DNA from: Acidobacteriota bacterium
GTDB taxonomy: Bacteria; Acidobacteriota; Aminicenantia; JBFLYD01
DNA: 64,000 nt
Reading direction: 5' to 3'
Assembly: GCA_040756905.1 (NCBI GenBank)
Contig: JBFLYD010000044.1
Coordinates: forward strand, 2,718-66,717
Shown: positions 37,851 through 55,662 of the stretch, piece after piece
How the letters are laid out: every line of letters begins with the position of its first letter
Numbering within the stretch: position 1 is the stretch's first letter
Position numbers and translations under genes: made by a program
Notes under the pieces: model-generated
Seen by the model: the letters and a program-made list of their open reading frames with translations, nothing else
The model's database searches: none
What the model was told of the DNA's origin: nothing

Positions 37851-37867
37851 TGAAATAGGGAGATAAA

Positions 37868-38827
37868 ATGATATTAGTATTTATAGAACAAAGGGAAGGA
37901 AGGATAAAAAAATCCTCAATCGAAGTTTTGTCGAAGTCAATCAGATTAAAAAGAGGAGAAGTTAATTCAATAATTATTGGAAATAATTTGAAAGATTCCA
38001 TCAATGATTTAAAAAAATTTTGTGAAAAAATTTATGTTTATGATGATCCTTTTTTTGAAAAATATTCTTCTTTATATTCTGACATAATTGTAGATTTAGC
38101 GAAGAGATTAACCCCAGAAGCAATTTTCTTTTCAGCCACATCTTTGGGAAAGGATTTAGCTCCAAGAGTTGCAGCTAATTTGAATGTATCGATTGCGTCA
38201 GATTGCATAGAGATAAAATGGGAAAGCGATATTCTTTATATAAAGAGGCCGATTTACGCAGGAAAAGCTTTTGCCTTAGTTAATTTCTTAAAAAAACCTT
38301 ATATTGCTACTTTAAGGCCCAATGTTTTCTCCATCGATTTTAATGGAGATAAAAATGCTGAAATAATAGAAGAAAAGTATGAATTAAAAAAAGAAATAAA
38401 CAGTAAGGTTATCGAAATTCTAAGAGGAGGAGGAACAGCTCTTGATATAACAGAAGCACAGGCCATTGTATCTGGAGGAAGGGGAATGAAAACTCCTGAA
38501 AATTTTTCCCTTCTCAAAGAATTAGCTTCAATTATCCCGAATTGCGCTGTTGGTGCCTCAAGAGCAGCTGTGGATGCAGGATGGATAGACCATCAACATC
38601 AGGTTGGGCAGACAGGAAAAGTTGTATCTCCTGATTTATACATGGCCTTTGGAATTTCTGGGTCTATTCAGCATCTTGCCGGTATGTCCTCTTCTAAAGT
38701 GATTGTGGCAGTGAATAAAGACCCTGAAGCACCAATTTTTAAAGTAGCAGATTATGGAATTGTTGGAGATTTGTTTGAAGTAGTACCTCTTTTAAAAGAA
38801 GAGTTGAAAAAACTTTTATCTCAATAA
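37868..38827 (+). CDS. etfA: Electron transfer flavoprotein, alpha subunit
   Basis: 319 aa with the FAD-binding C-terminus VSGGRGM...ASRAAVDAGW....QVGQTGK.V.P.LY.A.GISG.IQH. Confidence 0.9.
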   Translation: MILVFIEQREGRIKKSSIEVLSKSIRLKRGEVNSIIIGNNLKDSINDLKKFCEKIYVYDDPFFEKYSSLYSDIIVDLAKRLTPEAIFFSATSLGKDLAPRVAANLNVSIASDCIEIKWESDILYIKRPIYAGKAFALVNFLKKPYIATLRPNVFSIDFNGDKNAEIIEEKYELKKEINSKVIEILRGGGTALDITEAQAIVSGGRGMKTPENFSLLKELASIIPNCAVGASRAAVDAGWIDHQHQVGQTGKVVSPDLYMAFGISGSIQHLAGMSSSKVIVAVNKDPEAPIFKVADYGIVGDLFEVVPLLKEELKKLLSQ

Positions 38828-38828
38828 A

Positions 38829-40403
38829 TTAAAGAAGCATAACATTTTTTTCTGAGCGTGTTTCTCCAACACTTGTTATTCTAATTGCTGCAAGGTCTCT
38901 AACAGGACACTTATATTCACATATTCCACATCCAATACATTCTTCAGGGATTACAACCGGAACCTTCATGATTTTTTTTCCATCCTTTGTGGTTACTTCT
39001 TCTTCGACCATTTTTATTGCCTTGGGAGAGGTAGGACAGTGTTCCTCACATACAATACAATTTATTCCAAATGAGAAAGGAAGGCATCTGTCTTTATCCA
39101 CAAAAGCTGTTCCGATATGAATTTTCTTTTTCTTTTCCATTGTAATTTTTTCAATCGCATCTGTGGGACATACCTGGGAGCAGAGATAACAGTTATACTC
39201 ACAGTATCCTATTTTGGGAACAAGTTTTGGAGTCCATAGAGTTTCAAAACCTCCTTCGAATAAGGAAGGGTGCAATCCATTCGTAGGACAAACTTTTATG
39301 CACTCACTACATTTTATGCATTTTTTTACAAATTCTTCCTCCTTAACTGCTCCGGGAGGTCTGATTAGCGAAGGGTCAGCGTTTTTTACCGCAGATGAAA
39401 TTTTGAAAAATGGAGCTAAAACAACACCTGCCATTCCTGTAAATATTAATTTCCTTTTCTCAAAATTAACTGTTTTGTTTAGAGCAGGCTTGGATTCAAG
39501 GGGGAATGTAATGCCAGAATAAGGGCAAACTTTTGCGCACGTAAAACAGAATATACATTCTGAGGCTTTCCATTTGTTTTCTGGAAAAGGAGTTGCCTCG
39601 GTTGGACATCTAATGTTACATAATTTGCATTCATTACATTTACTTCGGTCTAATTTTAATTTCAAAAATGAAAAATTTCCGAATATTCCCAGCAGTGCAC
39701 CGAGCGGGCATAGGGCTCTGCACCAGAATCTATCTTTTAAAGAATTCAAAAATATAATCACCAAAAAAATCAACCCGATAAACAATCCCTGATCGAAATT
39801 TAAATCCATATAGTAAGATTCCATGAACTGGGAGATTCTATCACCGAGTTCAACGAAAAGATTCATGTTTATTGAGTAGAAAATAAATATAACTGAATCG
39901 AGTATCTTCCCTGCTACAGGAAATACAGAGTTTGTAAATGATCTGTAAAGGAGAGAGAATGGGTCTATGATACCGAAAAGATTCACTGAGAAAATTGAAA
40001 ATATCAAAAAGGCTATAAGTAAATAATATTTCCACAGGAGTCTGCTCTCTTTATCCTTTAACTGTATAAATATTTTTGCTTTTCTGAAAATAAATGAAAA
40101 TAGCTGGAGCAAAGAACCTAATGGACATATCCATCCACAGAAAAACCTTCCGAATAGAATTGTTATCATCAATGTTATCAGTGAGAAATAAAAAGCTTTT
40201 AATAAAATGTGAGAAGATACCAGATTTACTAATGGTATTAAAGGGTCAAATTTAAAAAATATATTTACCGGTGCAGAAAGAACATCTTTCTCTGGATATT
40301 TTGTTATAAGAATAAGATAAAAAAAAATAAAGAAGAATATGAATTGGGTTATTATTCTTAAAAGCTCAATTATTATATATTTTTCAGATCTTTGATTTTT
40401 CAA
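38829..40403 (-). CDS. NapH/MauN-like membrane polyferredoxin (multi 4Fe-4S)
   Basis: 524 aa. The N-terminal TM helices carry two CxxxCP motifs (FCGWICPLGSL, WCRALCPLGAL). These are followed by about six CxxCxxCxxxCP ferredoxin motifs. Confidence 0.75.
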   Translation of the reverse strand: MKNQRSEKYIIIELLRIITQFIFFFIFFYLILITKYPEKDVLSAPVNIFFKFDPLIPLVNLVSSHILLKAFYFSLITLMITILFGRFFCGWICPLGSLLQLFSFIFRKAKIFIQLKDKESRLLWKYYLLIAFLIFSIFSVNLFGIIDPFSLLYRSFTNSVFPVAGKILDSVIFIFYSINMNLFVELGDRISQFMESYYMDLNFDQGLFIGLIFLVIIFLNSLKDRFWCRALCPLGALLGIFGNFSFLKLKLDRSKCNECKLCNIRCPTEATPFPENKWKASECIFCFTCAKVCPYSGITFPLESKPALNKTVNFEKRKLIFTGMAGVVLAPFFKISSAVKNADPSLIRPPGAVKEEEFVKKCIKCSECIKVCPTNGLHPSLFEGGFETLWTPKLVPKIGYCEYNCYLCSQVCPTDAIEKITMEKKKKIHIGTAFVDKDRCLPFSFGINCIVCEEHCPTSPKAIKMVEEEVTTKDGKKIMKVPVVIPEECIGCGICEYKCPVRDLAAIRITSVGETRSEKNVMLL

Positions 40404-41268
40404 TTTTTAATTTTGAAAGGTCTACCTCACCATTCTTTCTTTTCTCGGCAATTCTTAAAAATCCAAGTTCTCTATAAGTTTTTCCGAAGAGTGTAGCTCC
40501 ATAGGAATCAACTGCAACATAATCCCTGCCTGCTATGATTGTCTTCTTTATCTGGACATCAGAAAGGCTCCCACCAGTTGGACCATTTCTTACCATAATT
40601 CTCCAGGCATCGATAACTGAAAGGCTGGGCTTAAAGAAATCTGCAAGGTCATTAACTACTCCATCAATCTGTTGATGGAGTCTATTCCTCTCGCCACCGA
40701 TAGCTCCGAGCCAGTTTTTCATTCCGAGCGTGAGAACAGCTAAGCTGTGATGTTTTGCTACAGGGACATTAATGATTTTATCTACTTCAACAAAATTTAC
40801 GAGAACATCCCATTCTTTCAAATATTCTCCATTAATTGAGACTCTTTTTATTCTTCTCAAATTTGGAAGAGGAACCTCAGCTCCTGCTTCTTTTGCTGCT
40901 TTCTCAATCCCTGACCTTATGTATGTTTTCTTTGCGTTATCGCACGGATTGTCAAGAACCATGACTTTTCTTGCTCCTGCTTCATATGCCATTTCAACCA
41001 ATGCTTTTACAACCTCTGGATTTGTGTTTGCTCCCTGTTCAGGAATTCTATCCCATCCGATGTTTGGTTTTACTATTACCTTATCTCCTCGAGATATAAA
41101 TTTCTTCATCCCCCCTATCTTTTCTATTGCTTTTTTTGTTCCTATATAAGGAGATTCTGATTGTACCACTGCCAAGTCAGGCAAAGTTTGAGAATGAATA
41201 ATTTCGGGGAAAAATTTTAGAACAACCCCACCAGCAATAATAGAGTTTAAAAATTTTCTCCTTTCCAT
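40384..41268 (-). CDS. Tat-exported DUF362-family protein
   Basis: 294 aa with the twin-arginine leader MERRKFLNSIIAGGVV. The body resembles DUF362 (IKPNIGW...NP.VV.A, KHHS). It overlaps the polyferredoxin start by 20 nt. Confidence 0.65.
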   Translation of the reverse strand: MERRKFLNSIIAGGVVLKFFPEIIHSQTLPDLAVVQSESPYIGTKKAIEKIGGMKKFISRGDKVIVKPNIGWDRIPEQGANTNPEVVKALVEMAYEAGARKVMVLDNPCDNAKKTYIRSGIEKAAKEAGAEVPLPNLRRIKRVSINGEYLKEWDVLVNFVEVDKIINVPVAKHHSLAVLTLGMKNWLGAIGGERNRLHQQIDGVVNDLADFFKPSLSVIDAWRIMVRNGPTGGSLSDVQIKKTIIAGRDYVAVDSYGATLFGKTYRELGFLRIAEKRKNGEVDLSKLKIEKSKI

Positions 41269-43623: not shown

Positions 43624-45204
43624 TCAACTGTTGAGGATTTTTTCTACTTCTTCTTTGTCTGTATCCATTATATAAGAAATTCCACTTATCTCTGCTGCTT
43701 CCTTTGTTATAGCTGCTATGTCATCTCTTGTTATGTAATTCAGAGAGAATTTTCTGTTTCCTGCCATAAGCTGTTTTAGTCCCTGTTCTATTCTTTTTAA
43801 ATAAGTGTAGAGACCTAATGCTCCAGTCGGGACCTTATCAAAATCCTTTCCCAGTTCTTTTTTAAGTTCAGGAGCAGTTACAAATATTTCTTCTGCAGTT
43901 TCTCCAAATCTTTCTACATAAACTGGAATATCTCCCTCAATGATTCTCTTTCCTATTGTCTTTCCAACCATTGCTGCTGCCAAAGGTCCTCTTGCCATAC
44001 CAACTAATTTAAAATAAGGAGCTCCAAGAGCCAATCCTTTATAAATTTGGTCTTCGAGAATAAATCCTCCAGCAACCCCTAAATCAGGAACATACTCTCC
44101 TTTTTTAGCAAGCTTATCTGCATATGAATAGAGTAATGAATGCAATTCAACAACTGGAACTCCCCATTCGTTCATCATCCTCCATGGGCTCATTCCTGTC
44201 CCGCCACCAGCTCCATCCACGGTTAGAAGGTCAACTTTTGCTTTTGATGCAAATTTTATAGCTCTTGCTAAATCAGAAGGGCGGTATGCTCCTGTCTTAA
44301 GAAATACATATTTTGCTCCTGCTTTTCTCAATTCCTCTACTCTTGAAAGAAATCCCTCTTCAGTAACCATACCAACCCTTGAATGTCTTTCAAATTCTTT
44401 AAAAACCCCCTTGTTAAATGCTTCTATAACTGTTGGGTCTTCAGGGTCAGGGAGAACAACATATCCTCTTTTTTTAAGAAGCTGGGCTTTTTGAAGGTTT
44501 TTTATCTTTACTTCTCCTCCGATATCTTTCGCACCCTGGCCCCATTTTAATTCCACTGCCTCGACCCCAAGTTTCTGAATTACATATTCATGAACTCCAA
44601 GCCGAGTATCCTCAACATTTGCCTGAACAATTATTGCTCCATATCCGTTTTGCTGCCACTCTTTATATAATTTAATTCTCCATGAAAGCTCTGGCGCTTC
44701 TACTACTTTTCCATTCTCAATCTTTGAATTATCATCCATTCCTGTAACGTTTTCGCCAATAGTAAGAGGAATTCCCGCTAATGCTGCTCCTATGGCAAGT
44801 CCTTCCCAGTTGTTTTTGGCCACTGCAGTTGAGCCAAGGCCAGGAATAATTACAGGAAGCTTAACCTTTATTTTTTTATCTTTTCCAATTTTCCTTTCCA
44901 GGTTTACGTTCGGAAAAATTGCTCTATCACTGTCAGCTTCGATTCCATGGGCACCAATAACAGTCCCCAGAATTGTAAAATGAGAGTAATCAACAGGATA
45001 AATTTTTTCTGATGCTGTTGTAATTATACCGAATGGCTGAGGGTATATTACTTCAGGACCTCTGTAAGCTGATTTTCCAATTTCGCACATTCCGATGCAT
45101 CCATCGACACAGGTAACGCACATTCCGCTTATAGATACTATAGAACCTTCTGTTCTATTCTTTGTTAATGTTGCTGCTGTAGCATTAATTCTTGATAATG
45201 ACAT
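43624..45204 (-). CDS. Stand-alone glutamate-synthase-type FMN domain protein (GltB domain 2-like) with N-terminal Cys cluster
   Basis: 526 aa with the FMN-domain signature LTVDGAGGGTGMSP, plus GVAGGF and an N-terminal CVTCVDGCIGMCEIGKS. There is no amidotransferase or GXGXG domain. Confidence 0.85.
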   Translation of the reverse strand: MSLSRINATAATLTKNRTEGSIVSISGMCVTCVDGCIGMCEIGKSAYRGPEVIYPQPFGIITTASEKIYPVDYSHFTILGTVIGAHGIEADSDRAIFPNVNLERKIGKDKKIKVKLPVIIPGLGSTAVAKNNWEGLAIGAALAGIPLTIGENVTGMDDNSKIENGKVVEAPELSWRIKLYKEWQQNGYGAIIVQANVEDTRLGVHEYVIQKLGVEAVELKWGQGAKDIGGEVKIKNLQKAQLLKKRGYVVLPDPEDPTVIEAFNKGVFKEFERHSRVGMVTEEGFLSRVEELRKAGAKYVFLKTGAYRPSDLARAIKFASKAKVDLLTVDGAGGGTGMSPWRMMNEWGVPVVELHSLLYSYADKLAKKGEYVPDLGVAGGFILEDQIYKGLALGAPYFKLVGMARGPLAAAMVGKTIGKRIIEGDIPVYVERFGETAEEIFVTAPELKKELGKDFDKVPTGALGLYTYLKRIEQGLKQLMAGNRKFSLNYITRDDIAAITKEAAEISGISYIMDTDKEEVEKILNS

Positions 45205-45279
45205 TTTTCCTCCTAATTAATTTTCATTTTTAAATTTTTAATAAAATCTATGTATAGAATGTAAGTCCTTTTAAAAAAC

Positions 45280-45975
45280 TCATTTTCTTAACTTTTCAGG
45301 TGTTTCCCTTACACAGGTTCCGCAATCTCCAGTAGGACCCATGAAACACATCAAATCTTCATAATAGTCAGTGCAGGTTGGGGATATAGTTAAACATGAA
45401 CCACAGACATCCTCTTCAAGTTCGGTTCCTAAGCATCTCATCTGACATGCAGGACAGATATACATGCAGGCGCCACATCTTCTGCAAACTTCAGATTTCA
45501 TGTCAAAAGGAGTTGTTATTCTACGATTATACCCTCTCTGAACAAAGCCGATTGCCTTTGCATCCATCTGTTCAGCGCATATTCTTACGCACAGTCCGCA
45601 GAGAGTACAATCATCATTGCGAATCTTAAATCTGACTTTTGTAACTCCAAATTTAGAGGCTAAATCCTGTATTGTTTTTGAAGTGGAACAGATTGAAAGT
45701 AACAATTCAATCATCATTTTTCGTGCTCTAATAACTCTTTTTGAATTAGTTCTTATGTTCAATCCATCTTCAGCTGGGTAAGTGCATGAGGAAACAAGTT
45801 TTGATTTATTGTTTTCTTGAATTTCAACAAGACATAGTCTACATCCACCATAAGGCGTGAGTCCTTCATAATAACATAAGGTAGGAATTTCAATTCCTAA
45901 GAAATTTGCTGCCTCTAAAATTGTTGCTCCTTTATCTACTTCCTGATCAATTCCATCTATTCTAATTAATGGCAT
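45280..45975 (-). CDS. 2Fe-2S / 2x[4Fe-4S] ferredoxin-like subunit (NuoG/HydA N-terminal type, no catalytic domain)
   Basis: 231 aa with the N-terminus IRIDGIDQEVDKGATILEAANFLGIEIPTLCYYEGLTPYGGCRLCLVEI, then CTLCGLCVRIC and CRRCGACMYICPAC. An additional C-terminal Cys-rich tail follows. Confidence 0.8.
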   Translation of the reverse strand: MPLIRIDGIDQEVDKGATILEAANFLGIEIPTLCYYEGLTPYGGCRLCLVEIQENNKSKLVSSCTYPAEDGLNIRTNSKRVIRARKMMIELLLSICSTSKTIQDLASKFGVTKVRFKIRNDDCTLCGLCVRICAEQMDAKAIGFVQRGYNRRITTPFDMKSEVCRRCGACMYICPACQMRCLGTELEEDVCGSCLTISPTCTDYYEDLMCFMGPTGDCGTCVRETPEKLRK

Positions 45976-45984
45976 TTCTCCCTC

Positions 45985-47853
45985 TTACTCAATGTATACG
46001 GCATCAAATTTACATACTTCCATACAGATTCCACATTTTATGCACTTTAATCGGTCAATCTCATGGGCAACCTTTTTCTCTCCAGAGATTGCCTCTTCAG
46101 GGCAGTTTCTTTGGCATACTCCACATCCATGACCTTGCAAAACACAAATATCTTTATCTATGTAATAACGAATCAAAGGTTTACAAACACCCGCAGGACA
46201 TTTTTTATCTATAATATGAGCTTGGTATTCTTCTCTGAAATAACGAAGTGTACTCAGTACAGGATTTGGAGCTGTTTGACCAAGCCCACACATGGAAGCA
46301 TCTTTTACTATCTCTGACAATTCCTCCAATAATTCCAAATCCTCTTCGGTTCCTTTCCCTTCCGTTATTTTATCCAAAATTTCCCACATTCTCTGAGTTC
46401 CTTCTCTACAGGAAAGACATTTTCCGCAAGATTCATCTCGAAGAAAATTCATGAAATATTTAGCAACATCAACCATACATGTATTCTCATCCATTACAAT
46501 CATTCCACCCGAACCCATCATTGAACCTGCTTCGGTTAATTTTTCAAAGTCAATTGGAAGATTGAGCAATTCACTGGGTATGCATCCTCCAGAAGGTCCT
46601 CCTGTTTGGACTGCTTTAAATTTTTTCCCACCTGGAATTCCTCCTCCAATGTCATATATTATTTCTTGTAATGTGATTCCCATTGGAACTTCCACTAACC
46701 CTGTATTATTTATCTTCCCAACTAAGGAAAATATTTTAGTGCCCTTAGAGGTTTCTGTGCCTATTTTGGAATACCAGTTTGAGCCGTTAATTATAATGAA
46801 CGGAACATTTGCCCAGGTTTCAACATTGTTTATATTTGTAGGTTTCCCCCATAATCCCTTTATTGCCGGATACGGAGGTCTTTGTCTCGGCTCTCCTATT
46901 CTTCCTTCAATAGAGGAAATGAGAGCAGTTTCTTCTCCACTTACAAAAGCGCCAGCTCCTCTTACTATTTTTATGTCGAAATTAAAACCCGTTCCCATAA
47001 TACTTTCGCCCAAAAAGCCATATTTTTTAGCCTGAGCAATTGCAAGAGTGGCGTTTTTTACTGCTAAAGGATATTCATGTCTTACATAAATGAATCCTTC
47101 TTTTGCTCCGATTGCATAAGCTCCTATCAACATTCCTTCAATTACACTATGAGGGTTGCCTTCTAAAAGACTTCGGTCCATATAAGCCCCAGGGTCTCCT
47201 TCATCACAATTGCAGATCAGGTATTTGGTATTGCCATTGCTGTTTTTTTTGCAAATCTCCCATTTTTTCCCTGTTAAAAACCCAGCTCCGCCCCTTCCTC
47301 TTAATCCTGACTTCTTAATTTCTTCTATGATTTCATCCTGATTCATCATTTGCAAAGCTTTCTTAAATGCTTCATAACCGTTGATTGCGATGTAGTCTTC
47401 GATCTTAGTTGGATCAATAAATCCGTTGTTTCCAAAAATGATTCTTTTCTGTTTTTGATAGAAGGGAACTTTGTCATCATAGATTATTTTTTCTTTTGTT
47501 AAAGGATCTTCATACAATAAATGCTCTACAATTTCTTTATTTTTAATTGTTTTTGAGAGTATTTCATCTACATCTTCACTTTTAACTCTTTGGTAGAATA
47601 CTCCATCTGGCTGAATTACTAATATTGGACCTCTTTCACAAAATCCATGACATCCAGTGGCTCTTATGTCAACATCAAGATTCATCTCCTTTGCCCTCTC
47701 TTTAAAAGCTTCTGTAACTTTTTCACAGCCATAAGCGTGACAGCCAGTTCCATTGCATATAGTAATAGTCTGTTTGAGTGAATTTCTTTTATTCATTATT
47801 CTTTTTCTTAATTTCTCAAGATCTTCAAAATTTTTTATCTTCCTCATTTTCAA
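45985..47853 (-). CDS. NuoF/HndC-like NADH-binding FMN/FeS subunit
   Basis: 622 aa. It has an N-terminal thioredoxin-like 2Fe-2S domain and a NuoF core (GLRGRGGAGFLTGKKW, CDEGDPGAYMDR, ESCGKCLSCREG). The C-terminus carries 2x 4Fe-4S motifs (CGVCQRNCP, CIKCGICMEVC). Confidence 0.9.
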   Translation of the reverse strand: MKMRKIKNFEDLEKLRKRIMNKRNSLKQTITICNGTGCHAYGCEKVTEAFKERAKEMNLDVDIRATGCHGFCERGPILVIQPDGVFYQRVKSEDVDEILSKTIKNKEIVEHLLYEDPLTKEKIIYDDKVPFYQKQKRIIFGNNGFIDPTKIEDYIAINGYEAFKKALQMMNQDEIIEEIKKSGLRGRGGAGFLTGKKWEICKKNSNGNTKYLICNCDEGDPGAYMDRSLLEGNPHSVIEGMLIGAYAIGAKEGFIYVRHEYPLAVKNATLAIAQAKKYGFLGESIMGTGFNFDIKIVRGAGAFVSGEETALISSIEGRIGEPRQRPPYPAIKGLWGKPTNINNVETWANVPFIIINGSNWYSKIGTETSKGTKIFSLVGKINNTGLVEVPMGITLQEIIYDIGGGIPGGKKFKAVQTGGPSGGCIPSELLNLPIDFEKLTEAGSMMGSGGMIVMDENTCMVDVAKYFMNFLRDESCGKCLSCREGTQRMWEILDKITEGKGTEEDLELLEELSEIVKDASMCGLGQTAPNPVLSTLRYFREEYQAHIIDKKCPAGVCKPLIRYYIDKDICVLQGHGCGVCQRNCPEEAISGEKKVAHEIDRLKCIKCGICMEVCKFDAVYIE

Positions 47854-48314
47854 GCTCCCCTCAATTTTTTAATCAAAGGATTGACCTTCGATTTGGTCAT
47901 CTGTCCATGGTAATCATTGTTTACAATAACAATGGGACCCAATGCACATGCGCCAACACAGTTAACAGATTCAAGAGAGAACATCATATCATTTGCTATT
48001 TCACCTGATTTTATCTGCAGTCTTCTTTCAAATTCCTCTAATACTCCAAGGGCTCCTCGAACGTGACAGGCTGTGCCAAGACACACTGTAACATGATATT
48101 TCCCAATCGGATGAAGTCTGAACCAGCGATAAAATGTAGCAATTTGGTATATATTTATGAGTGGGATTTTGAGTTGGTTTGAAATCTCAATCAAAGCTTC
48201 TTGGGGGAGATATTTATATTGGTCTTGAACATCCTGCAATATCGCAATTAAAAGACTTTTTTCATTTTTATATTTTTTTAGAATCGATTTACATTCTTTT
48301 AAATTAACTTCCAT
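47850..48314 (-). CDS. NuoE/HndA-like 2Fe-2S subunit
   Basis: 154 aa containing CLGTACHVRGA...VNCVGACALGP. It overlaps the nuoF-like start. Confidence 0.9.
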   Translation of the reverse strand: MEVNLKECKSILKKYKNEKSLLIAILQDVQDQYKYLPQEALIEISNQLKIPLINIYQIATFYRWFRLHPIGKYHVTVCLGTACHVRGALGVLEEFERRLQIKSGEIANDMMFSLESVNCVGACALGPIVIVNNDYHGQMTKSKVNPLIKKLRGA

Positions 48315-48414
48315 TATGAGTGCCTCCTAAAAATATTTGTAAAGTTATTAATCCTGAAATATTAAATAAAAAAGATAGTCTTTCTCCTCTTTTTTTATTT
48401 TGATTTGCATTTAA

Positions 48415-48897
48415 TTATCCTTCCCGAGTCCAAATTTTTATAGGAGGAGTTTCTATAGAAGTTACCATTGCTCCATAGCCTTTCCTTTCTATAATCTCTC
48501 TGTCATTAACAATATGAATATCTAAAAAGTGGCCCATTTCTTCGCATCTATCGCCCATGAAATTTTTATAGTGCTCTAACATTTTTTTATCCAATTTTTT
48601 TATGGCTTGCTGGAGTTTTTCTTTTCCATTATTTATATGGATTATCATGTCAATATCTGATGTAAATGATGCTCTGTCCTCTAAAACAGTGCCATAAATA
48701 TAAGCAGCCTTAATACAACTGTTAACAGTATTATTCAAATAGGAAACTATTTGTTTGGCTAAAGCATATCTGAATGAACTATGAGTTTTTTTATCTCCCT
48801 GGTGAAGTGACGTCAGAATCAGATTTCTGCCCTGCTTTGTCTTTTCCACACAGAAACTCAAGGCATTATCAAACATCATTTTTATAGTCATACTCAT
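48415..48897 (-). CDS. Polymerase-beta-fold nucleotidyltransferase-like protein
   Basis: 160 aa with the motif YGTVLEDRASFTSDIDMII (G-S/T ... D.D) and a later LDIHIV. Function unknown. Confidence 0.5.
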   Translation of the reverse strand: MSMTIKMMFDNALSFCVEKTKQGRNLILTSLHQGDKKTHSSFRYALAKQIVSYLNNTVNSCIKAAYIYGTVLEDRASFTSDIDMIIHINNGKEKLQQAIKKLDKKMLEHYKNFMGDRCEEMGHFLDIHIVNDREIIERKGYGAMVTSIETPPIKIWTREG

Positions 48898-49157
48898 TTA
48901 AATAATTTAACGCATGAATCTTTGTTACATCTTACTTGATTTGCTCTCACCTCAATCCTCTTCCCAGAGGGGAGAGGGATGGTAAGGGGCCAGTAATGCA
49001 TCAGAATTAAATGTGTTTGTATTATTAAAAAAGAAAGCCCCCTCAGTGCCTTCCTGATTAAAAGGATCTTTAGCTGCTTAGATGACCTGGAAAACAGCCA
49101 TTGAAAGACGCCTTTTCTTATCAGAGAAATTTTGGCATCAAGGGGGCATATATTCAT
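48894..49157 (-). CDS. Doubtful 87-aa ORF spanning a repeat copy
   Basis: ATGA overlaps occur at both ends (49154-49157 and 48894-48897). The central third is encoded by the family C repeat (48950-49024), which also occurs in non-coding positions. Confidence 0.25.
   Translation of the reverse strand: MNICPLDAKISLIRKGVFQWLFSRSSKQLKILLIRKALRGLSFLIIQTHLILMHYWPLTIPLPSGKRIEVRANQVRCNKDSCVKLFK
48982..49024. repeat. Family C repeat fragment, copy C1
   Basis: AAGGGGCCAGTAATGCATCAGAATTAAATGTGTTTGTATTA is nearly identical to 49593-49635. It is preceded by the hairpin CCTCTTCCC-AGA-GGGGAGAGG. Confidence 0.65.
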
Positions 49158-49345
49158 TTTTTATTTCTCAATTCCTCTTTTTTTATTTGAATATGTTCTT
49201 GATAAACTTCACATTTAAGATAATCTTTACAGGTGCAATATCTCTCTTTTTCTGATCGACTGGGAACAATTATTTTTTTCTCAAATACCTTGCAATATCT
49301 CATCACTGTTTCTTCATAGAAAGGGCACTTCATTTTTATTTCCAT
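49154..49345 (-). CDS. Small Cys-rich protein (5 Cys), first ORF after the sigma-54 promoter
   Basis: MEIKMKCPFYEETVMRYCKVFEKKIIVPSRSEKERYCTCKDYLKCEVYQEH... ATG 49333 (MKCPFYEE) is the more likely start, given the promoter geometry. Confidence 0.55.
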   Translation of the reverse strand: MEIKMKCPFYEETVMRYCKVFEKKIIVPSRSEKERYCTCKDYLKCEVYQEHIQIKKEELRNKK

Positions 49346-49359
49346 CCATTATTTTTAAA

Positions 49360-49374
49360 GCAAATTTAGTGCCA
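49360..49374 (-). promoter_or_regulatory. Sigma-54 (-24/-12) promoter
   Basis: The minus strand reads TGGCACTAAATTTGC, a perfect TGGCAC-N5-TTGC. It lies downstream of an NtrC-family activator gene carrying GAFTGA. Confidence 0.7.
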
Positions 49375-49592
49375 ATCATTATTTTGACAAAATAAGTTAA
49401 ATTAAAATATTGTAATTGATTGAATTTTAAGGATTTGTAATTAATAAAATTTTTTGATAGGGATTTATAGAATTATTAAGAGAAGTTGATTTGTATTAAA
49501 TATGTTTAATATTTATACATTAAATCTATTCTTCTAAAAAGAAGAGTACAAATTATGGAAAAAGAAGAGTCTGTTTCAAATTGACTAAGGCT

Positions 49593-49635
49593 CTAAGGGG
49601 ACGGGAATGCATCAGAATTAAATGCGTTTGAATTA
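49593..49635. repeat. Family C repeat fragment, copy C2
   Basis: AAGGGGACGGGAATGCATCAGAATTAAATGCGTTTGAATTA lies in the intergenic region upstream of the sigma-54 promoter. Confidence 0.65.
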
Positions 49636-49714
49636 GTAGAAGTGGAATGAGTAAAGGTGTGGATCTTTAAAGATTAGTTGTTCTGATAATAACTGTATAA
49701 TTATTATACATATT

Positions 49715-51070
49715 TTATTTTTTTAATTTATATTTTTTAATTTTATTGTAAAGAGTTAATCTTTCTACCCCTAAAATCCTCGCACTTTTGCTGATATTCC
49801 AGTTATTTTCATTTAAAATATTGGATATATAATCTTTTTCAATTTCGTTTAATGATTTTTTTAAAGAGGGCATATTAGATTCCATTTTTGTTTTTTCAAT
49901 TATTGTCGGAGGAAGATCTTCGGGTTTAATAATTTTATCCTTGCATAAGATAACCAATCTCTCAATCATATTTTCTAATTCTCGGATATTCCCTGGCCAT
50001 TCATATTCCATTAGTAAATTCATTGCAGCAGGAGATATCGACTTTTTATCTCTACCCGATTCAAGACTATATTTAGTCAAGAAATGATCGACAAGAAGAG
50101 GTATATCTTCTTTTCTTTCTTTCAATTCAGGGAGGTATATGGGAATAACATTTAAACGATAAAATAAATCTTCTCTGAAAGTGCCATTTTTTACTGCTTC
50201 TTCTAAATTTTTATTACTCGAGGTAATAATGCGAATATCTATTTTTATTAATTCTGAGCCACCAACTCTTCTAAATTCTCTTTCTTGTAGAACCCTTAAC
50301 AGATGTATTTGTGTCTCAAGACTCATATCACCTATTTCGTCAAGAAATAATGTTCCACCATTGGCGAGCTCAAAACGTCCTTTTTTTGTATAAATAGCCC
50401 CTGTAAAAGCCCCTTTCTCATGGCCAAACAATTCACTTTCCAGGAGTTCTCTTGGGATAGCTGCACAATTGGCTGCGATAAAAGGTTTATTCCAGCGCTG
50501 GCTTTTTTGGTGAATTGCTCTTGCAATTACCTCTTTCCCAGTGCCACTCGCTCCTTGAATCAGCACAGTAGCGTTGCTATCAGCTATATTTTCAACTAAC
50601 TCTAAAATTTTCTTCATCTGATGACTTTTTCCAACAATATTTTTTAGACTATACCTATCTTCTAACTGTTGTCGTAACTGAATATTTTCAGCTTCTAATT
50701 GTTGATATTTAACTATTGTTTTTACTGTCAACTCAATTTCGTCTAAGGAAAATGGTTTAATTAAATAATTATATGCTCCTTCCCTCATAGCTTTTATGGC
50801 TGTTTCTATTGTGGCATAGGCTGTCATAATTATTACTGCCACCCCTGGATTTATTTTTTTGATAGCCTGGAGAACTTCAAGGCCATCTTTTCCAGGCATC
50901 TTAAGGTCTATAAAGGCTACATTGAAGGATTCTAATCTGATTTTTTCAATGGCATCTTTTCCATTTGCTGCAACAATAACATTGTATCCCTTTTCTTTTA
51001 ACCAATCTGACATGGTGTTTCGCATGATAGCTTCATCATCTGCAATTAATATATTAACCTTTTTATTCAT
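49715..51070 (-). CDS. Sigma-54-dependent response regulator (REC-AAA+-Fis HTH, NtrC family)
   Basis: 451 aa with the REC domain (ILIADDE...DLKMPGKDG), Walker A GASGTGKE, GAFTGA in GHEKGAFTGA, and a C-terminal HTH (ISKSARILGVERLTLYNKIKKY). Confidence 0.95.
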   Translation of the reverse strand: MNKKVNILIADDEAIMRNTMSDWLKEKGYNVIVAANGKDAIEKIRLESFNVAFIDLKMPGKDGLEVLQAIKKINPGVAVIIMTAYATIETAIKAMREGAYNYLIKPFSLDEIELTVKTIVKYQQLEAENIQLRQQLEDRYSLKNIVGKSHQMKKILELVENIADSNATVLIQGASGTGKEVIARAIHQKSQRWNKPFIAANCAAIPRELLESELFGHEKGAFTGAIYTKKGRFELANGGTLFLDEIGDMSLETQIHLLRVLQEREFRRVGGSELIKIDIRIITSSNKNLEEAVKNGTFREDLFYRLNVIPIYLPELKERKEDIPLLVDHFLTKYSLESGRDKKSISPAAMNLLMEYEWPGNIRELENMIERLVILCKDKIIKPEDLPPTIIEKTKMESNMPSLKKSLNEIEKDYISNILNENNWNISKSARILGVERLTLYNKIKKYKLKK

Positions 51071-52793
51071 TTATATTTTCTCTCTTGAGAGGTAGTTTAA
51101 TAATAAAGGTTGTTCCTTTATTTACTTCACTCTGGACTTCAATACTCCCATCGTGCTCATCTATGATTCCGTAGACAACCGATAATCCTAAACCTGTTCC
51201 TTTTCCTTGGGGCTTAGAACTGAAAAAGGGGTCAAAAAGGTAGGGTAAATTCTCTTGGGGGATTCCATATCCTGTATCAACAATTCCAATTTCAATGGTA
51301 TTTCTTTTTTGATTATACTTAGAAAAAATCTTTAATTCTCCTCCTTTCGGCATAGCTTCCATAGAGTTTAAAATTATATTCATTAAAGCTTGATGAATTT
51401 GATGAGCATCAGCAAATATTTGAGGTAGATTATGTTCTAATTCTTTAAATATAATGATATTCTGAATCGAAGCCTGAGGTTCAATAAGAGCGATTAATTC
51501 TTGTATAACTGTATTAACATCCATTAGGGCAGGATTAATCTTGGGAGGTCTTGAAAATGCGAGAAAATCACGGACAATTTTTATGCATCGATTTAATTCT
51601 TGCTCAGAAGCTTTCAAATACTTAATCGAATCAATATAATCTTTTGGTTTGGGGTTAGACTTGTTAATCTTTGTGGAAATCAATTTCAAACAATTTGAGA
51701 TTCCGCTGAGGGGATTATTTATTTCATGGGCTACCCCTGCAGCCAATTGTCCCACTGCCGCTAATTTCTCTGACCTTATAAGCTTTTCCTGTTGCTTTTT
51801 GATCTCCTGATCATGTCGCCTCAACATCTTAACAATTCTTTTTGAAACAAATATGGTAAAGTTAATAATAGCCACAATTGTTATAAAATTAATTAGTAAA
51901 AATATATTTCTTAAGTGGTAAATTGTCTTGAATGCTTCTGATCTATCCTGCTCAACCATCAGACACCATTCCATGTTAGGTATCCAGTAGTAAGCTCCTA
52001 AAACAATTTTATTTCTATAATCAACATACTCACCCACACCGGATCTACCTTTTTTGCATTCTTGGGTTCCTTTAGTTGATATTTTCTTTTTTAAAATATA
52101 GCCTGGTTCAAATTTTGATTCGGTAAGAAAAAATCCATCTTTGTTAACCAAATAACTCTCACCAGTTTTACCTATTTCAATGTCTTGCATTAATTTGTGA
52201 ATAGACTCTAATTTGATTCTTTCAGCTAATACACCCATTATTTCATTTTTAAAATTTCTAATCGGTGTTGCAACAATCATAGTTGGTTTATTAATGCTTG
52301 GGGATGAGTAAACATTTGTATTGAAAGTTTTTCCATTTAAGACTTCATGAAAATAATTTATTTCTCCAATAATATCTTTAGTTTTTCCAGTAGTGATAAG
52401 CATCTGCCCCTTTCTATTTAATATAAAAATTTCATTGTAACAACCATATTTGTTTTTTACAAATTGAAGATGTGCTTTTAGATTAACATAGTTTTTTTGG
52501 TTAATATCTATGTTGGGATATGGATTTTTTATATCATTAAAAAATTTTATTACTTCAGATGAGCGGGCAAAGACTTCAGCATCAGCATGGCGTTCGAACA
52601 GCCATTTCTGTATTGCGATACCTTTATTTTTAGCTATTTCAAAAAGATGAGTGGAAATAATATTATGGAGAGAATTTCTAAAACTGTAGTAGGAAACTAA
52701 AGAAATCGTAAGTAATGGAGTTAGAGATAGAAATAGAAATAGAATAATGAAAGACTTTTCAAGAGCTCTATATCTATCCTTTTCTGTTCTCAT
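51063..52793 (-). CDS. Sensor histidine kinase with periplasmic Cache-like domain
   Basis: 576 aa with two TM segments flanking a Cache-like sensor of about 270 aa. It has the H-box AAGVAHEINNPL and HATPase N/G boxes (DTGYGIP, GTGLGLS). It overlaps the regulator gene. Confidence 0.9.
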   Translation of the reverse strand: MRTEKDRYRALEKSFIILFLFLSLTPLLTISLVSYYSFRNSLHNIISTHLFEIAKNKGIAIQKWLFERHADAEVFARSSEVIKFFNDIKNPYPNIDINQKNYVNLKAHLQFVKNKYGCYNEIFILNRKGQMLITTGKTKDIIGEINYFHEVLNGKTFNTNVYSSPSINKPTMIVATPIRNFKNEIMGVLAERIKLESIHKLMQDIEIGKTGESYLVNKDGFFLTESKFEPGYILKKKISTKGTQECKKGRSGVGEYVDYRNKIVLGAYYWIPNMEWCLMVEQDRSEAFKTIYHLRNIFLLINFITIVAIINFTIFVSKRIVKMLRRHDQEIKKQQEKLIRSEKLAAVGQLAAGVAHEINNPLSGISNCLKLISTKINKSNPKPKDYIDSIKYLKASEQELNRCIKIVRDFLAFSRPPKINPALMDVNTVIQELIALIEPQASIQNIIIFKELEHNLPQIFADAHQIHQALMNIILNSMEAMPKGGELKIFSKYNQKRNTIEIGIVDTGYGIPQENLPYLFDPFFSSKPQGKGTGLGLSVVYGIIDEHDGSIEVQSEVNKGTTFIIKLPLKRENINE

Positions 52794-52940
52794 TTCATTA
52801 ATTATTGTTTAATATTTATACACTATAATTATTCGCTGATTTCAGTAAATTGTCAATTTAATAAATTTAAACCATATTATTCGGGGCAACAAAATTCTAT
52901 AAGTTTCCTCTTTTTCTAAAAGAATTCTCTTAAGCGGAAA

Positions 52941-53038
52941 TTTATGAAGTTGGGGAGAGGATTAAAGCTTGCCCCATACTTGATACGGGGGTGAGGGATC
53001 ATACTGAGAATGTAATAAAACTTTTTGCGTTTGTATTA
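52941..53038. repeat. Family C repeat, copy C3
   Basis: GGGGAGAGG...GGGGGTGAGGG ... GCGTTTGTATTA. The CGTTTGTATTA end (53028-53038) lies 10 nt from the gdh stop. Confidence 0.6.
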
Positions 53039-53047
53039 ATCTATTTT

Positions 53048-54307
53048 TTAGACCCAGCCTCTTAACTTCATTGCCTCTGCAACTCTTTCTATTGCCACTA
53101 CATATGCTGCCATTCTATGGTGCACTTTATATTTTTTAGATGTTTCGAGAGTATCATGGAAGGCTTTTGTCATTTTTTTGTCTAATTTCTCGTGAACTTC
53201 TTCCTCAGTCCAATAATATCCGTATAAATTTTGAACCCATTCAAAGTAAGAAACTGTTACTCCTCCAGCATTACATAGAAAGTCAGGAATTACAAATACA
53301 CCTTTTTTATATAGAATTTCATCAGCATCAGGAGTTGTAGGGCCATTTGCTAATTCAGCAGAAATTTTGGCTTTTACATTAGGAGCATTTCCCCCTGTTA
53401 TTTGATTTTCAAGCGCTGCAGGGAAGAGTATATCCACATCTAATTCAAGAATCGCTTCATTTGATATTGGTTTTGTTTTTGGGAAATTGATAACTGAGCC
53501 TGTTTTTTTCTTAAAGTTATTTACTTCTTCGGGATCAAGACCATCTGGATTGAAGATTCCCCCTTTTGAATCACTTACAGCGACTACTTTAGAACCGAAC
53601 ATTTCTTCTACTAATTTTGCTGCATAATATCCAGCATTACCATATCCTTGAATCGCAACAGTTGCTTTTTTTAAATCAAGACCTAAAACTTTGGCAGCCT
53701 CTCTAACAGTATACATTCCTCCTCTTGCAGTAGCATCGCCTCTTCCAGCTGATCCTCCTAAAGCAACAGGTTTTCCTGTAATTACTCCAGGAGCACTATG
53801 TCCAACAATTTTGCTGTATTCATCCATCATCCAAGCCATAATTTGAGGATTAGTATAAACATCAGGTGCAGGTATATCTTTTTCTGGACCAATAAATGTT
53901 CCAATGGCACGAATATAACCCCGACTTAATCTTTCCAATTCGCCTTCTGACATTTCTTTTGGATTACAAATAACCCCTCCTTTTCCTCCTCCATAAGGGA
54001 GGTCTACCATGGCTGTTTTCCAGGTCATCCATGCAGCCAAAGCCTTAACTGTATCGATGGTTTCATCAGGATGGAATCGAATTCCACCTTTAGTTGGTCC
54101 TTTGGCATCATTGTATTGGACTCGGAATCCTCTGAAAACTTTTACTGTTCCATCATCCATCTTAATGGGGATGGAAACATGAAGTTCTCGCATAGGTTCG
54201 CGTAGCATCGCATGCACCCCAGGATCCAACTTAATGATTTTTGCAGCCTCATCCAATTGGGCTTGAGCCACCGCAAATGGATTAAGAGACTCTTTGTTTT
54301 TATTCAT
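53048..54307 (-). CDS. gdh: Glutamate dehydrogenase (paralogue 1)
   Basis: 419 aa with the catalytic Lys region [11 protein letters not shown], plus GGGKGG and the Rossmann motif QGYGNAG. Confidence 0.9.
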
Positions 54308-54339
54308 AATAAATCCTCCTTGTATATAAAAATTTAATT

Positions 54340-55662
54340 TTAGGCATATAAGCCTCTTATTTCCGATGTCTTTATCACTCTTTTTATTGCCACTATGTAT
54401 GCGGCTACTCTCATGCTGACTTTTAAATCTAAAGATGTTTTTAGGACATTATTAAACGCCTGATCCATTATTCTTTTTAAATCTTCAATAACTTTTTCTT
54501 CTGACCAGTAATATCCCATTCTATTCTGAACCCATTCAAGATAGGATACCGTCACGCCGCCTGCGTTGCATAATATATCTGGTATGATAAAAATTCCTTT
54601 CCTGCTTAGAATATCATCTGCTTCTACGGTTGTTGGTCCATTGGCTCCTTCGGCAATAATTTTTGCTTTGATTCTTTCTGCATTTTTTTCTGTTATCTGA
54701 TTCTCCAGGGCCGCTGGAATGAGGATATCAACTTTAAGCTCTAAAAGATCCATGGGATTTTTCAATTTTTTTACCTTTAAAAATTTCTCCAGATCTTTTA
54801 AAGAACCTTTCTCTACTGCATACTTCACTACAGCCTCTATATCCAATCCATTCTCATTGTAAAAAGCTCCGTTTATGTCAGAAATTGTAATTATTTTACA
54901 TCCTTCCTTGGATAGAAGCTTTGCTGTGTTTGAACCGACATTTCCAAACCCCTGAATTGCAACAGTTGATTTTCTTAAATCCATTTTTAAATACTCTAAA
55001 GCTTTTTTTATGGTGAATAATATTCCCCATGCAGTGGCTTCAATCCTTCCCTCAGAACCTCCTATTTCAAGGGGTTTCCCTGTTACAACCCCTGGAATGT
55101 ATTCTCTGAAGTGCATTGAATAGGTATCCATGTACCATCCCATTATCTGGGGGTTTGTGTTTACGTCAGGCGCAGGAACATCTTTGTCAGGACCAAATAG
55201 TTCAATCATATCTGCGAAGTATCTTCTTGATAATCTTTCTAATTCTGCCTCTGATAATTTTTTTGGGTCAACTACTACTCCTCCTTTGGCTCCTCCCATC
55301 GGGATGTTGACAACAGCGCATTTGTATGTCATCCAGAAAGCCAGAGCTTTTACCTCTTCCAGGTTAACATCCGGATGGTATCTCACACCTCCTTTTGCTG
55401 GTCCTCTTGCCACATTGTGTTGTACTCGATATCCTTTAAAAATCTTTATTGAATTGTCATCCATTCTGACAGGGAGGTTAACTTCAACAATTCTTCTGGG
55501 CTCTTTTATCATTGCAATCTGATTTTCATTTAATTCTAAAATATTTGCAGCTCTTTCAAATTGCTTTAAGGCATTTTCAAAGGCGGAAGAGGTTTGTTTT
55601 CCATCCTCGTATAATTCACATCTTATTCTCTTGTAGAACTGTTTTCTTGATTCCCGAGCCAT
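54340..55662 (-). CDS. gdh: Glutamate dehydrogenase (paralogue 2, about 20-aa longer N-terminus)
   Basis: 440 aa containing [17 protein letters not shown] and QGFGNVG. It is collinear with paralogue 1. Confidence 0.88.

Follow-up and report, generated by a model that had tools for sequence, protein, structure and literature searches.

A predicted BfuABC-type electron-input core encoded with a GltB-like flavoprotein in an Acidobacteriota bacterium and other uncultured anaerobes

To gain insight into how a glutamate synthase-like protein might receive its electrons, we analysed a 64,000-nucleotide stretch of an Acidobacteriota genome (contig JBFLYD010000044.1 of assembly GCA_040756905.1; hereafter the window), in which four adjacent minus-strand genes encode a NuoE-like [2Fe-2S] protein, a NuoF-like protein, an iron-sulfur (FeS) protein and a GltB-like flavin mononucleotide (FMN) protein. 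The four genes almost certainly specify a single enzyme; with a probability of about one half, it is a soluble FeS flavoenzyme of the BfuABC family that is devoted to glutamate chemistry, the GltB-like protein standing where other members have hydrogenase, formate dehydrogenase or tungsten subunits. The combination of a Bfu core with this flavoprotein occurs in hundreds of uncultured anaerobes. More tentatively, the locus may be the founding example of an abundant and unrecognised 'Glt-Bfu' class that would couple NADH and ferredoxin to the reductive amination of 2-oxoglutarate.

The four open reading frames (ORFs), their coordinates, strand and spacing all agree with those given by a first-pass annotation of the window, and the domains that it assigned to the four proteins are the ones returned by our Pfam and NCBIfam scans. 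The nuoE- and nuoF-like genes overlap by 4 nt, if a TTG start codon is used, and are followed by the FeS gene after 9 nt and by the flavoprotein gene after a further 75 nt; an AGGAGG ribosome-binding site precedes the flavoprotein gene. The first-pass annotation saw no strong hairpin in this last spacer, and our terminator and folding checks likewise found none: both the 75-nt spacer and the 100-nt spacer ahead of the nuoE-like gene are without an intrinsic terminator or a stable hairpin (z = -0.6 and +1.2 versus shuffled sequence). A terminator scan from the promoter to the end of the last gene gave a single weak candidate, inside the flavoprotein ORF.

The three electron-input proteins resemble the core subunits of bifurcating Bfu enzymes. 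The NuoE-like protein matches the NuoE and HoxE models of NCBIfam slightly below their cut-offs and has the features of BfuC membership, namely one [2Fe-2S] site and a gene that overlaps or abuts bfuB. The NuoF-like protein comprises an N-terminal 2Fe-2S_thioredx domain, Complex1_51K, SLBB and NADH_4Fe-4S domains, and a C-terminal Fer4 dicluster. Residues 30-619 align with the B subunit of the NiFe hydrogenase of Acetomicrobium mobile (NiFe-HydB, 7T2R_B) at 837 bits, and end-to-end alignments were also obtained with 8A6T_B, WorB (9MQX_B) and NfnB (9N5U_B), the HydB structures including those of T. kivui and A. woodii. In these alignments the cysteine ligands of the N-terminal [2Fe-2S] cluster, of B1 and B2 and of the C-terminal dicluster superpose, with a 4-residue insertion in the first C-terminal Cys motif relative to 7T2R_B, 8A6T_B and 9MQX_B. 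The protein has a thioredoxin-like [2Fe-2S] site, an FMN/NADH site, the B1 [4Fe-4S] site, a B2 site with the motif CPAGVC, and a C-terminal ferredoxin-binding domain with two [4Fe-4S] sites. The N-terminal [2Fe-2S] cluster, B2 and the C-terminal dicluster separate bifurcating BfuB from NuoF, HoxF and FdsB (PMC9304861); as judged from its sequence, the window protein has every site expected of a bifurcating BfuB.

The 231-residue FeS protein lacks a catalytic domain, and its best match in the PDB is WorA (9MQX_A, E = 4e-41, residues 4-213). It carries the A1 [2Fe-2S] and the A2 and A4 [4Fe-4S] motifs; the motif of the His-ligated A3 cluster is absent, which makes the protein a Type 2 BfuA. WorA is itself a small Type 2 BfuA with A1, A2 and A4 and no A3, the Cys-rich C-terminal domain of which recruits the catalytic subunits (PMC12318220), and the partners of small Type-2 BfuA subunits are additional catalytic subunits (PMC9304861; PMC12318220). 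Among 63 orthologues of the window BfuA, the 12 cluster cysteines are invariant and the seven cysteines of the tail (177, 181, 191, 194, 201, 210 and 218) are kept in at least 97%. As these seven exceed the four zinc ligands of WorA, the docking end may bind a further metal. The NuoE/NuoF/FeS set is thus predicted to be a BfuABC (HydABC-type) core, which is more than a plain NuoEF pair.

The fourth protein matches a single Pfam family, PF01645 (Glu_synthase; 62.7 bits against a cut-off of 20.4), over residues 280-400 and profile positions 186-303 of 369, and no model in an NCBIfam scan. Both signatures noted at first pass are present: DGAGGGTG at residues 330-337 and an N-terminal C29xxC32xxxC36xxxC40 site. 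The four cysteines are at least 90% conserved in the family, the consensus of which has no cysteine past residue 40. The [3Fe-4S] motif of glutamate synthase (GltS) is missing, with the N-terminal four-Cys site in its stead. An AlphaFold2 model (pLDDT 87, pTM 0.88) shows an alternation of strands and helices, with residues 1-26 and 58-66 disordered. Its Foldseek neighbours are FMN TIM-barrel oxidoreductases, headed by Type-2 isopentenyl diphosphate isomerase (IDI-2), glycolate, mandelate and lactate oxidases and flavocytochrome b2; the ferredoxin-dependent GltS structure 1LLW has the highest query TM-score (0.49) among the 50 matches listed, yet does not stand out from them. De novo TIM barrels that topped a profile search of the PDB were discarded as repeat or low-information matches.

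With the N-terminal half aligned by eye, the synthase-site motifs of GltS occur in the same order in the flavoprotein and in E. coli GltB. The flavoprotein segment VQANVEDTRLGV corresponds to KQVASGRFGV of GltB; ELKWGQGAKDIGGE corresponds to IKVAQGAKPGEGGQ, which holds the catalytic lysine; AQLLKKRGYVVLPDP, with R246, corresponds to IAKLRYSVPGVTLISPPP, with the substrate arginine of IAKLR; FERHSR corresponds to PHHD; and DGAGGGTGMSP corresponds to DGGTGASP. These aligned GltS-type residues are invariant or nearly so within the flavoprotein family. At the position of GltS Q978 the flavoprotein has a glutamate, E231, in a loop that is one residue shorter.

The link between the flavoprotein and the Bfu core is borne out by gene order. 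We collected 134 non-redundant loci from GTDB species representatives of bacteria and archaea, as 8-kb neighbourhood stretches; the denominators that follow are the loci with enough flanking sequence. The FeS gene lies at most 400 nt upstream of the flavoprotein gene in 119 of 122 loci and within 700 nt, with a small ORF inserted between, in the other three. NuoF is encoded upstream in 95/95 loci and NuoE in 83 of 85, the remaining two having NuoE farther upstream behind an inserted block. With insertions counted, the synteny with nuoE- and nuoF-like genes that the first-pass annotation called for is complete (122/122 FeS, 95/95 NuoF and 85/85 NuoE), and the gene order recurs in many phyla of both domains. 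A motif-based DNA scan and a sample of contig look-ups found no FeS or NuoF neighbours for homologues of 43-64% identity; the Bfu context is confined to orthologues at least 67% identical to the window protein, so the linkage marks one orthologous group. Conserved synteny in this group and its absence from divergent paralogues support the first-pass proposal that the module is tied to the GltB-like protein.

The flavoprotein is widespread. Homologues of the flavoprotein fill more than 8000 clusters at 90% identity, of which the best 120 are 75-83% identical to it; across phyla, from Aminicenantes to Theionarchaea and Methanoperedens, identity is 72-83%. Hosts among the best 120 include Aminicenantes (the closest, 83%), WOR-3, Hydrogenedentota, Aerophobetes, Spirochaetes, Theionarchaea, Thermoplasmatales and Bathyarchaeia, to which a genome scan added Zixibacteria, Ignavibacteria, Planctomycetota, Methanoperedens and ANME-1. 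Among GTDB species representatives, at least 594 of the 600 candidates examined encode the flavoprotein. The only label that the homologues bear is 'FMN-binding glutamate synthase family protein'. A library clustered at 50% identity gave just 189 clusters at E <= 1e-30, which indicates a compact family. The flavoprotein is the most conserved of the four subunits, at 71-80% identity to the window, followed by NuoF (52-71%), the FeS protein (52-68%) and NuoE (39-55%). Conservation at 72-83% across such distant lineages argues for strong constraint and a probably important function.

These data bear on whether the flavoprotein is a subunit at all. We regard it as very improbable that it is merely co-transcribed and that NuoE, NuoF and the FeS protein serve an unlinked partner. 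The 75-nt gap ahead of its gene would suit such an arrangement, but in bacteria and archaea alike all 122 loci have the FeS gene adjacent, no paralogue retains this adjacency, BfuA lacks a catalytic domain, and neighbourhood clustering shows no other conserved candidate for a partner. The flavoprotein's own cluster site would also suit the receipt of single electrons.

The relatives fall into two architectures. Among the first 65 classifiable loci, 22 are window-like, their BfuB keeping the ferredoxin-type dicluster, and 43 have a GltD-like module; in the larger set, a GltD-like Fer4_20 plus flavin adenine dinucleotide (FAD) module is fused to NuoF or follows it in 62 of 95. The window, with the ferredoxin-type domain of its BfuB retained, thus represents the minority form. 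GltD is the natural reductase of GltB, and the prevalence of its module speaks for glutamate chemistry. Apparent relatives with only GltD, FeS and flavoprotein genes were rejected as a class, since all proved to be NuoF-GltD fusions that end at the edge of the 8-kb stretch. In one locus (L014, 1501-5619; similarly L031) a block is inserted between NuoE and NuoF-GltD. In L014 this block encodes a histidine-kinase-like ATPase, a 427-residue [FeFe]-hydrogenase-like protein (Fe_hyd_lg_C, Fer4 and FeS domains), a PHP phosphatase-like protein, a second HATPase and a small thioredoxin-like 2Fe-2S protein; the operon seems here to harbour a regulatory module of the sensory-hydrogenase type.

The neighbours of the Bfu-linked group also point to nitrogen. 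All-versus-all clustering of ORFs from the first 80 loci returned sigma-54 activators (23 loci), histidine kinases (17), glutamate dehydrogenase (GDH; 15), a receiver/PEP-utilising protein (10, with an archaeal representative), small Cys-rich proteins (9) and glutamine synthetase (GS; 5) as recurrent; in the larger set, sigma-54 activators occur in 50/134 loci and GDH of at least 40% identity in 15/134. The link to nitrogen or glutamate metabolism suggested at first pass is strengthened by this recurrence of GDH, sigma-54 activators and GS, and by paralogues of 56-59% identity that lie in clusters of GS, ANTAR regulator and split glutamate synthase genes. Paralogues over a slightly wider range, 56-61% identity, adjoin canonical glutamate synthase genes in L160 (2274-7995), L194 (161-8000), L104 and L096. 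In the two of these that were Pfam-scanned, L160 and L194, a GS gene lies beside the paralogue; L160 adds a Fer4 plus PF01645 FMN subunit (462 bits) and a GXGXG gene, and L194 an ANTAR response regulator and a GATase_2 gene. By tblastn with the domains of E. coli GltB against about 270 related loci and the window, the amidotransferase domain was found in two paralogue loci only, the central domain marginally in one locus, and GXGXG in none, the one in paralogue locus L160 having been found by Pfam. Neither neighbour clustering nor tblastn found amidotransferase or GXGXG genes accompanying the Bfu-linked group. The wider flavoprotein family is tied to the glutamate/glutamine node, yet is not simply the FMN subunit of GltS.

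A further homologue, P0244 (800 residues), has an FrhB/FdhB-like N-terminal half fused to a flavoprotein of the family (38% identity, with the motif QGAKPGMGGE); it may represent an F420-linked form of this catalytic subunit. With electron-input modules as different as BfuABC and FrhB, the flavoprotein behaves as a modular acceptor. A second paralogue of the flavoprotein, 52-62% identical to that of the window, was seen in loci of Dethiobacter, Methanoperedens and Ammonifex metagenome-assembled genomes. It directly adjoins the Bfu-linked cluster in L020 (4129-5709) and L027 (5021-6604, minus strand), and in L140 two paralogues (2730-4238 and 5776-7335) precede a NuoE-like gene at the end of the stretch.

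If the four proteins form one enzyme, NADH would exchange electrons with the FMN of BfuB, and ferredoxin would do so at the B3/B4 clusters, via C1. From B1 the electrons would run through A1, A2 and A4 to the Cys-rich tail of BfuA, and from there to the N-terminal [4Fe-4S] cluster and the FMN of the flavoprotein, at which 2-iminoglutarate, formed from 2-oxoglutarate and free NH3, would be reduced to L-glutamate. Lacking a glutaminase domain, the enzyme would be ammonia-dependent. Expression would be driven by the sigma-54 promoter and the adjoining two-component system. Three modes are conceivable: NADH and reduced ferredoxin could both be oxidised, which would give a glutamate synthase independent of ATP and NADPH; 2 NADH could be split between the amination of 2-oxoglutarate and the reduction of ferredoxin; or this second mode could run in reverse and serve glutamate catabolism. 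In the more common form, the fused GltD would bring a further site, for NAD(P)H.

Several observations weigh against assigning glutamate chemistry to this complex. A phmmer search of the PDB with the flavoprotein found no glutamate synthase at E < 0.1, a profile search reached GltS in the PDB at E = 0.36, hhalign against the FMN domain of E. coli GltB covered the C-terminal half only, at 71% probability, and the N-terminal motifs were aligned to GltB by eye. Foldseek scores IDI-2 and the alpha-hydroxy-acid oxidases as high as GltS. The flavoprotein has neither the [3Fe-4S] motif nor the amidotransferase, central and GXGXG domains of GltS, and the paralogues in L160 and L194 coexist with a genuine split GltS, which suggests that the family may have a related function distinct from that of GltS. 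The classic mid-potential Bfu scheme is a poor fit for a third substrate near -0.1 V (Table 1 of PMC9304861), GDH, encoded next door, can already carry out this net reaction from NAD(P)H, and the promoter lies 1 kb away from nuoE with ORFs of unrelated look between. As the flavoprotein fails several features that define GOGAT, the name 'glutamate synthase' is not warranted without an assay.

Much of this evidence would fit an alternative that we consider unlikely, in which the substrate of the FMN subunit, in an otherwise unchanged complex, is some other acid of the 2-oxo, imino or 2-hydroxy type or some other small acceptor, and the neighbouring GDH only supplies or removes 2-oxoglutarate and NH3 for linked transamination. 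The similar fold-search scores, the marginal sequence similarity to GltS, the replacement of Q978 by E231 in a shortened loop and the paralogues alongside split GltS all lean this way. Set against them, the lysine of the QGAK motif, the arginine 20 residues on and the FMN phosphate motif are kept in GltS order in the partly by-eye alignment, PF01645 is the sole Pfam match, most relatives have a GltD fusion, and the recurring neighbours are GDH and GS genes and not genes of lactate, glycolate or isoprenoid metabolism.

Returning to glutamate as the third product, its couple lies at about -0.1 to -0.15 V. NADH lies at about -280 to -320 mV and ferredoxin at about -420 to -500 mV (Table 1 of PMC9304861). 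As the glutamate couple is far more positive than both, the reaction likely runs in the reductive direction, and this would group the enzyme with the predicted high-potential members of the family, Nuo-Bfu and Rub-Bfu. It would also leave coupling thermodynamically unneeded, by the potentials of PMC9304861 and that of glutamate given above. Bifurcation might then be absent altogether, leaving a plain NADH- and ammonia-dependent glutamate synthase with extra clusters that are passive wires or vestiges, and most relatives have indeed given up the C-terminal ferredoxin domain for GltD. We nevertheless find this improbable: the window BfuB keeps the N-terminal 2Fe-2S cluster, B2 and the C-terminal dicluster, all absent from non-bifurcating homologues, and Wor-Bfu sets a precedent, being tightly coupled though its reaction is exergonic for each acceptor alone (PMC9304861).

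The same potentials place the reverse, catabolic reaction (glutamate + reduced ferredoxin + 2 NAD+ -> 2-oxoglutarate + NH4+ + 2 NADH) energetically near equilibrium, unlike the two-donor mode. Such an enzyme would be analogous to the confurcating lactate dehydrogenase/Etf system and would pull an unfavourable deamination in peptide fermenters. Two GDH genes lie within the same co-directional cluster, and most hosts belong to anaerobic lineages such as Aminicenantes, Zixibacteria, WOR-3, Theionarchaea, Thermoplasmata and Bathyarchaeia, many of which are considered peptide degraders. The sensor kinase has a dCache domain, a type that typically binds amino or organic acids. We think it quite unlikely, all the same, that catabolism is the role of the enzyme: GltS-type enzymes are physiologically glutamate-forming, control of the sigma-54/NtrC type and GS neighbours suit assimilation better, all reducing power would end as NADH, of which such fermenters dispose poorly, and most relatives have a GltD module in place of the ferredoxin domain.

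Among characterised systems, the closest in layout is WorABCSL, the tungsten aldehyde oxidoreductase-Bfu of A. mobile (PDB 9MQX; PMC12318220), which like the window combines a BfuBC core with a small BfuA. WorA (247 residues) has A1, A2 and A4, no A3, and a Cys-rich C-terminal domain, as does the window BfuA; in Wor-Bfu the catalytic site resides on separate subunits docked to the BfuA C-terminus, and we propose the same docking logic here. The partner in the window is a single FMN TIM-barrel protein, in contrast to the tungstopterin protein WorL and the polyferredoxin WorS, the BfuA tail has seven invariant cysteines as against the four-Cys zinc finger of WorA, and the proposed third substrate is of high potential where that of Wor-Bfu is of low potential. 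Nfn-Bfu/Stn (NfnABC; S. ovata, C. saccharolyticus and T. sibiricus) combines a BfuBC core with a GltD-like FAD/NADPH module, as do two thirds of the relatives, but has no GltB-like subunit; its GltD-like domain is part of BfuA, whereas in the relatives it is fused to or follows BfuB, and in the window it is absent. A GltD-like domain on HydB has also been described in archaeal hybrid hydrogenases, and the GltAB-GudB counter-enzyme complex is a precedent for an association of GDH with GltS (PMC11216029).

Glutamate synthase itself (GltBD, or the split archaeal-type GltS) shares with the window PF01645 and, in an alignment made partly by eye, the lysine of QGAK, the arginine that follows it and DGxGGTG, and, with the relatives, a GltD partner in most and GS and GDH in genomic company. 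It differs in having amidotransferase, central and GXGXG domains, in a [3Fe-4S] motif where the window has CxxCxxxCxxxC, in its PF01645 score (462 bits for the genuine split-GltS FMN subunit, 62.7 here) and in receiving its electrons by a route other than BfuABC. The FrhB-GltB-like fusions contain the same flavoprotein family, including the N-terminal Cys site, with F420H2 input via FrhB in one chain. They are likewise uncharacterised, and the architecture has been discussed as an F420-dependent glutamate synthase (PMC9012536).

Geobacter sulfurreducens has a five-gene operon, GSU1235-1239, with a predicted RpoN promoter, which is treated as its GOGAT (PMC2725144). Two of the genes encode small hypotheticals and the others a pyridine-nucleotide-disulfide oxidoreductase, an FeS protein and a 'glutamate synthase-related protein'; GSU1239 rises together with glnA (PMC6964889). 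Compared by description, this candidate counterpart resembles the sigma-54-driven relatives in layout and regulation. A paper on nitrogen regulation (PMC2995071) does not mention the operon. No Geobacter locus was among the best 80 of either genome scan or in a codon-biased DNA pattern scan. The second genome scan had a deltaproteobacterial query and gave one Desulfuromonadaceae match (L159), a 44%-identical paralogue without FeS or GltD neighbours.

The third substrates listed for the Bfu family are hydrogen, formate, NADP, F420, aldehydes, pyruvate, CO, benzoyl-CoA, quinone and peroxide (PMC9304861); the word 'glutamate' is absent from the text of this survey and from one supplementary file. 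Full-text searches, in a collection of papers that does not cover all journals, found no bifurcating or Bfu-type glutamate synthase or dehydrogenase, and papers joining NuoEF terms with glutamate synthase do not describe this enzyme. The first-pass annotation knew of no characterised enzyme with this subunit set, and these searches concur. What would be new is the catalytic subunit, a glutamate-synthase-like protein joined to an enzyme of the known Bfu family.

Nearly all nitrogen enters biomass by way of glutamate, whose known routes of formation draw on NAD(P)H (GDH, GltBD), ferredoxin (plant and cyanobacterial GltS) or ATP (GS). Glt-Bfu, if real, would provide ATP- and NADPH-independent ammonium assimilation, or NADH bifurcation paid for by glutamate formation, in hundreds of uncultured anaerobic bacterial and archaeal species, and through the variant with fused GltD the NADPH pool would be connected to the same site. 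For energy-starved anaerobes it would be a new means of coupling their redox economy to the assimilation of nitrogen or the catabolism of amino acids, and metabolic reconstructions of sediment and subsurface lineages, in which the gene is now labelled 'glutamate synthase family protein', would change. The Bfu family would extend to a central metabolic reaction unlisted among its predicted third substrates (PMC9304861).

The four genes come last, in transcription order, in a co-directional minus-strand cluster that spans 43624-55662 and begins with a pair of GDH genes (see the table). The genes downstream of the flavoprotein gene (DUF6677, VanZ and amidase by Pfam) are unrelated.

Table. Features of the flavoprotein locus, in window coordinates
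Feature	Position	Strand	Basis or remark
NuoE/BfuC-like [2Fe-2S] subunit, 154 aa	47850..48314	-	PF01257 (2Fe-2S_thioredx), 172 bits
BfuB/NuoF-like subunit, 622 aa	45985..47853	-	Pfam domains and full-length alignment to bifurcating B subunits
Small Type-2 BfuA (WorA-type FeS protein), 231 aa	45280..45975	-	Fer2_4 and Fer4 dicluster; best PDB match WorA
GltB-like FMN TIM-barrel flavoprotein, 526 aa	43624..45204	-	PF01645; proposed catalytic (third-substrate) subunit
160-aa ORF, weak nucleotidyltransferase (Pol-beta) likeness	48415..48897	-	Pfam Polbeta E = 4.5e-5, below gathering score
Doubtful ORF lying over repeat copy	48894..49157	-	ORF call, Pfam scan, repeat search
59-aa Cys-rich ORF (MKCPFYEE...CTCKDYLKCEVYQEH)	49154..49333	-	First gene after promoter; possible accessory or metal-binding protein
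Sigma-54 (-24/-12) promoter TGGCACTAAATTTGCT	49359..49374	-	Exact consensus TGGCAC-N5-TTGCT
NtrC-family sigma-54 activator (response regulator)	49715..51070	-	Response_reg, Sigma54_activat and HTH_8
Sensor histidine kinase, periplasmic dCache_1 domain	51063..52793	-	Pfam; gene overlaps response-regulator gene
Glutamate dehydrogenase paralogue 1, 419 aa	53048..54307	-	ELFV_dehydrog and ELFV_dehydrog_N; GdhA_Arch 684 bits, cut-off 750
Glutamate dehydrogenase paralogue 2, 440 aa	54340..55662	-	Pfam and NCBIfam scans

A sigma-54 promoter had been reported to precede the gene string. Its sequence is indeed an exact consensus, but it lies 1,045 nt from nuoE, with three ORFs between that had gone unmentioned. 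The 64 kb of the window hold five sigma-54 matches with at most one mismatch where 1.2 are expected, and none of 100 shuffles reached five. A distance of 341 nt separates the promoter from the end of the activator gene upstream. In related loci, sites with at most one mismatch occur upstream of nuoE in 8 of 49; all eight adjoin an activator gene, and about 910 kb contain 13 plus-strand matches in all, these eight included. The promoter and its adjoining enhancer-binding protein gene mark a predicted sigma-54-dependent operon. Between the small Cys-rich ORF and nuoE, no second sigma-54 promoter or terminator was found. A second exact consensus in the window, TGGCACTGGTGTTGCT, lies at 61520-61535 on the minus strand, inside or at the start of the ORF 61217-61819.

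The first ORF after the promoter matches no Pfam family and has a 46% identical counterpart at the same position in locus L003 (4356-4604). Small proteins with the motif C-x2-C-x5-C...[WYH]-x-CEE[YF], in one or two copies, come first after the activator or promoter in 15 related loci (for example L059 at about 4823-5176, L029 at about 6602 and L039 at about 5089), and small Cys-rich proteins sit after the flavoprotein gene in two further loci. The motif is looser in the 59-residue ORF of the window (CPFYEE...CTCKDYLKCEVY). Such proteins could serve the complex as an additional subunit, as a metal chaperone or in its regulation.

The ORF that follows it was judged doubtful as a gene, as it has no Pfam match and overlies one copy of a 48-nt direct repeat. 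The 160-residue ORF next to nuoE has no homologue in 80 related loci and no predicted terminator on either side, and its membership of the operon is uncertain. At the equivalent site L003 has a different insert, a 231-residue ORF in which a helix-turn-helix was suggested by eye, and this part of the locus, ahead of nuoE, may be a hot spot for insertions. The two copies of the repeat (48983-49030 and 49594-49641) are 85% identical and 611 nt apart, and bracket the promoter and the small ORF; the 64 kb contain the repeat core CATTTAATTCTGATGCATT exactly two times, where 0.02 occurrences are expected. One copy lies about 220-280 nt upstream of the promoter, the usual place of an activator binding site, and the other within the doubtful ORF.

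As for what the rest of the window contains, the first-pass annotation held that it has no glutamine amidotransferase domain, which proved incorrect: a GlmS gene at 14315-16144 encodes a class II amidotransferase with GATase_6/7 and two SIS domains. This is the sole glutamine amidotransferase domain among the window ORFs scanned, and belongs to a housekeeping GlmS-GlmU-like pair (14315-17520, minus strand), 28 kb from the locus and unrelated to it. The absence of GltD stands, tblastn of the window being negative, as does that of an H-cluster or molybdopterin subunit among the scanned ORFs, which outside the locus include only some of those below about 250 residues.

Another electron-transfer system possibly lies 2-6 kb from the operon, within 37011-41268. 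It contains an EtfA-like gene (37868-38827), with a probable EtfB gene directly before it, tail to tail with genes for a 524-residue membrane polyferredoxin-like protein (four Fer4 stretches) and a DUF362 protein. Lastly, ParB-, MnmG-, MnmE- and YidC-like genes lie together at 1-10010. This set is origin-proximal in many bacteria, and the window may therefore lie near the chromosomal origin.

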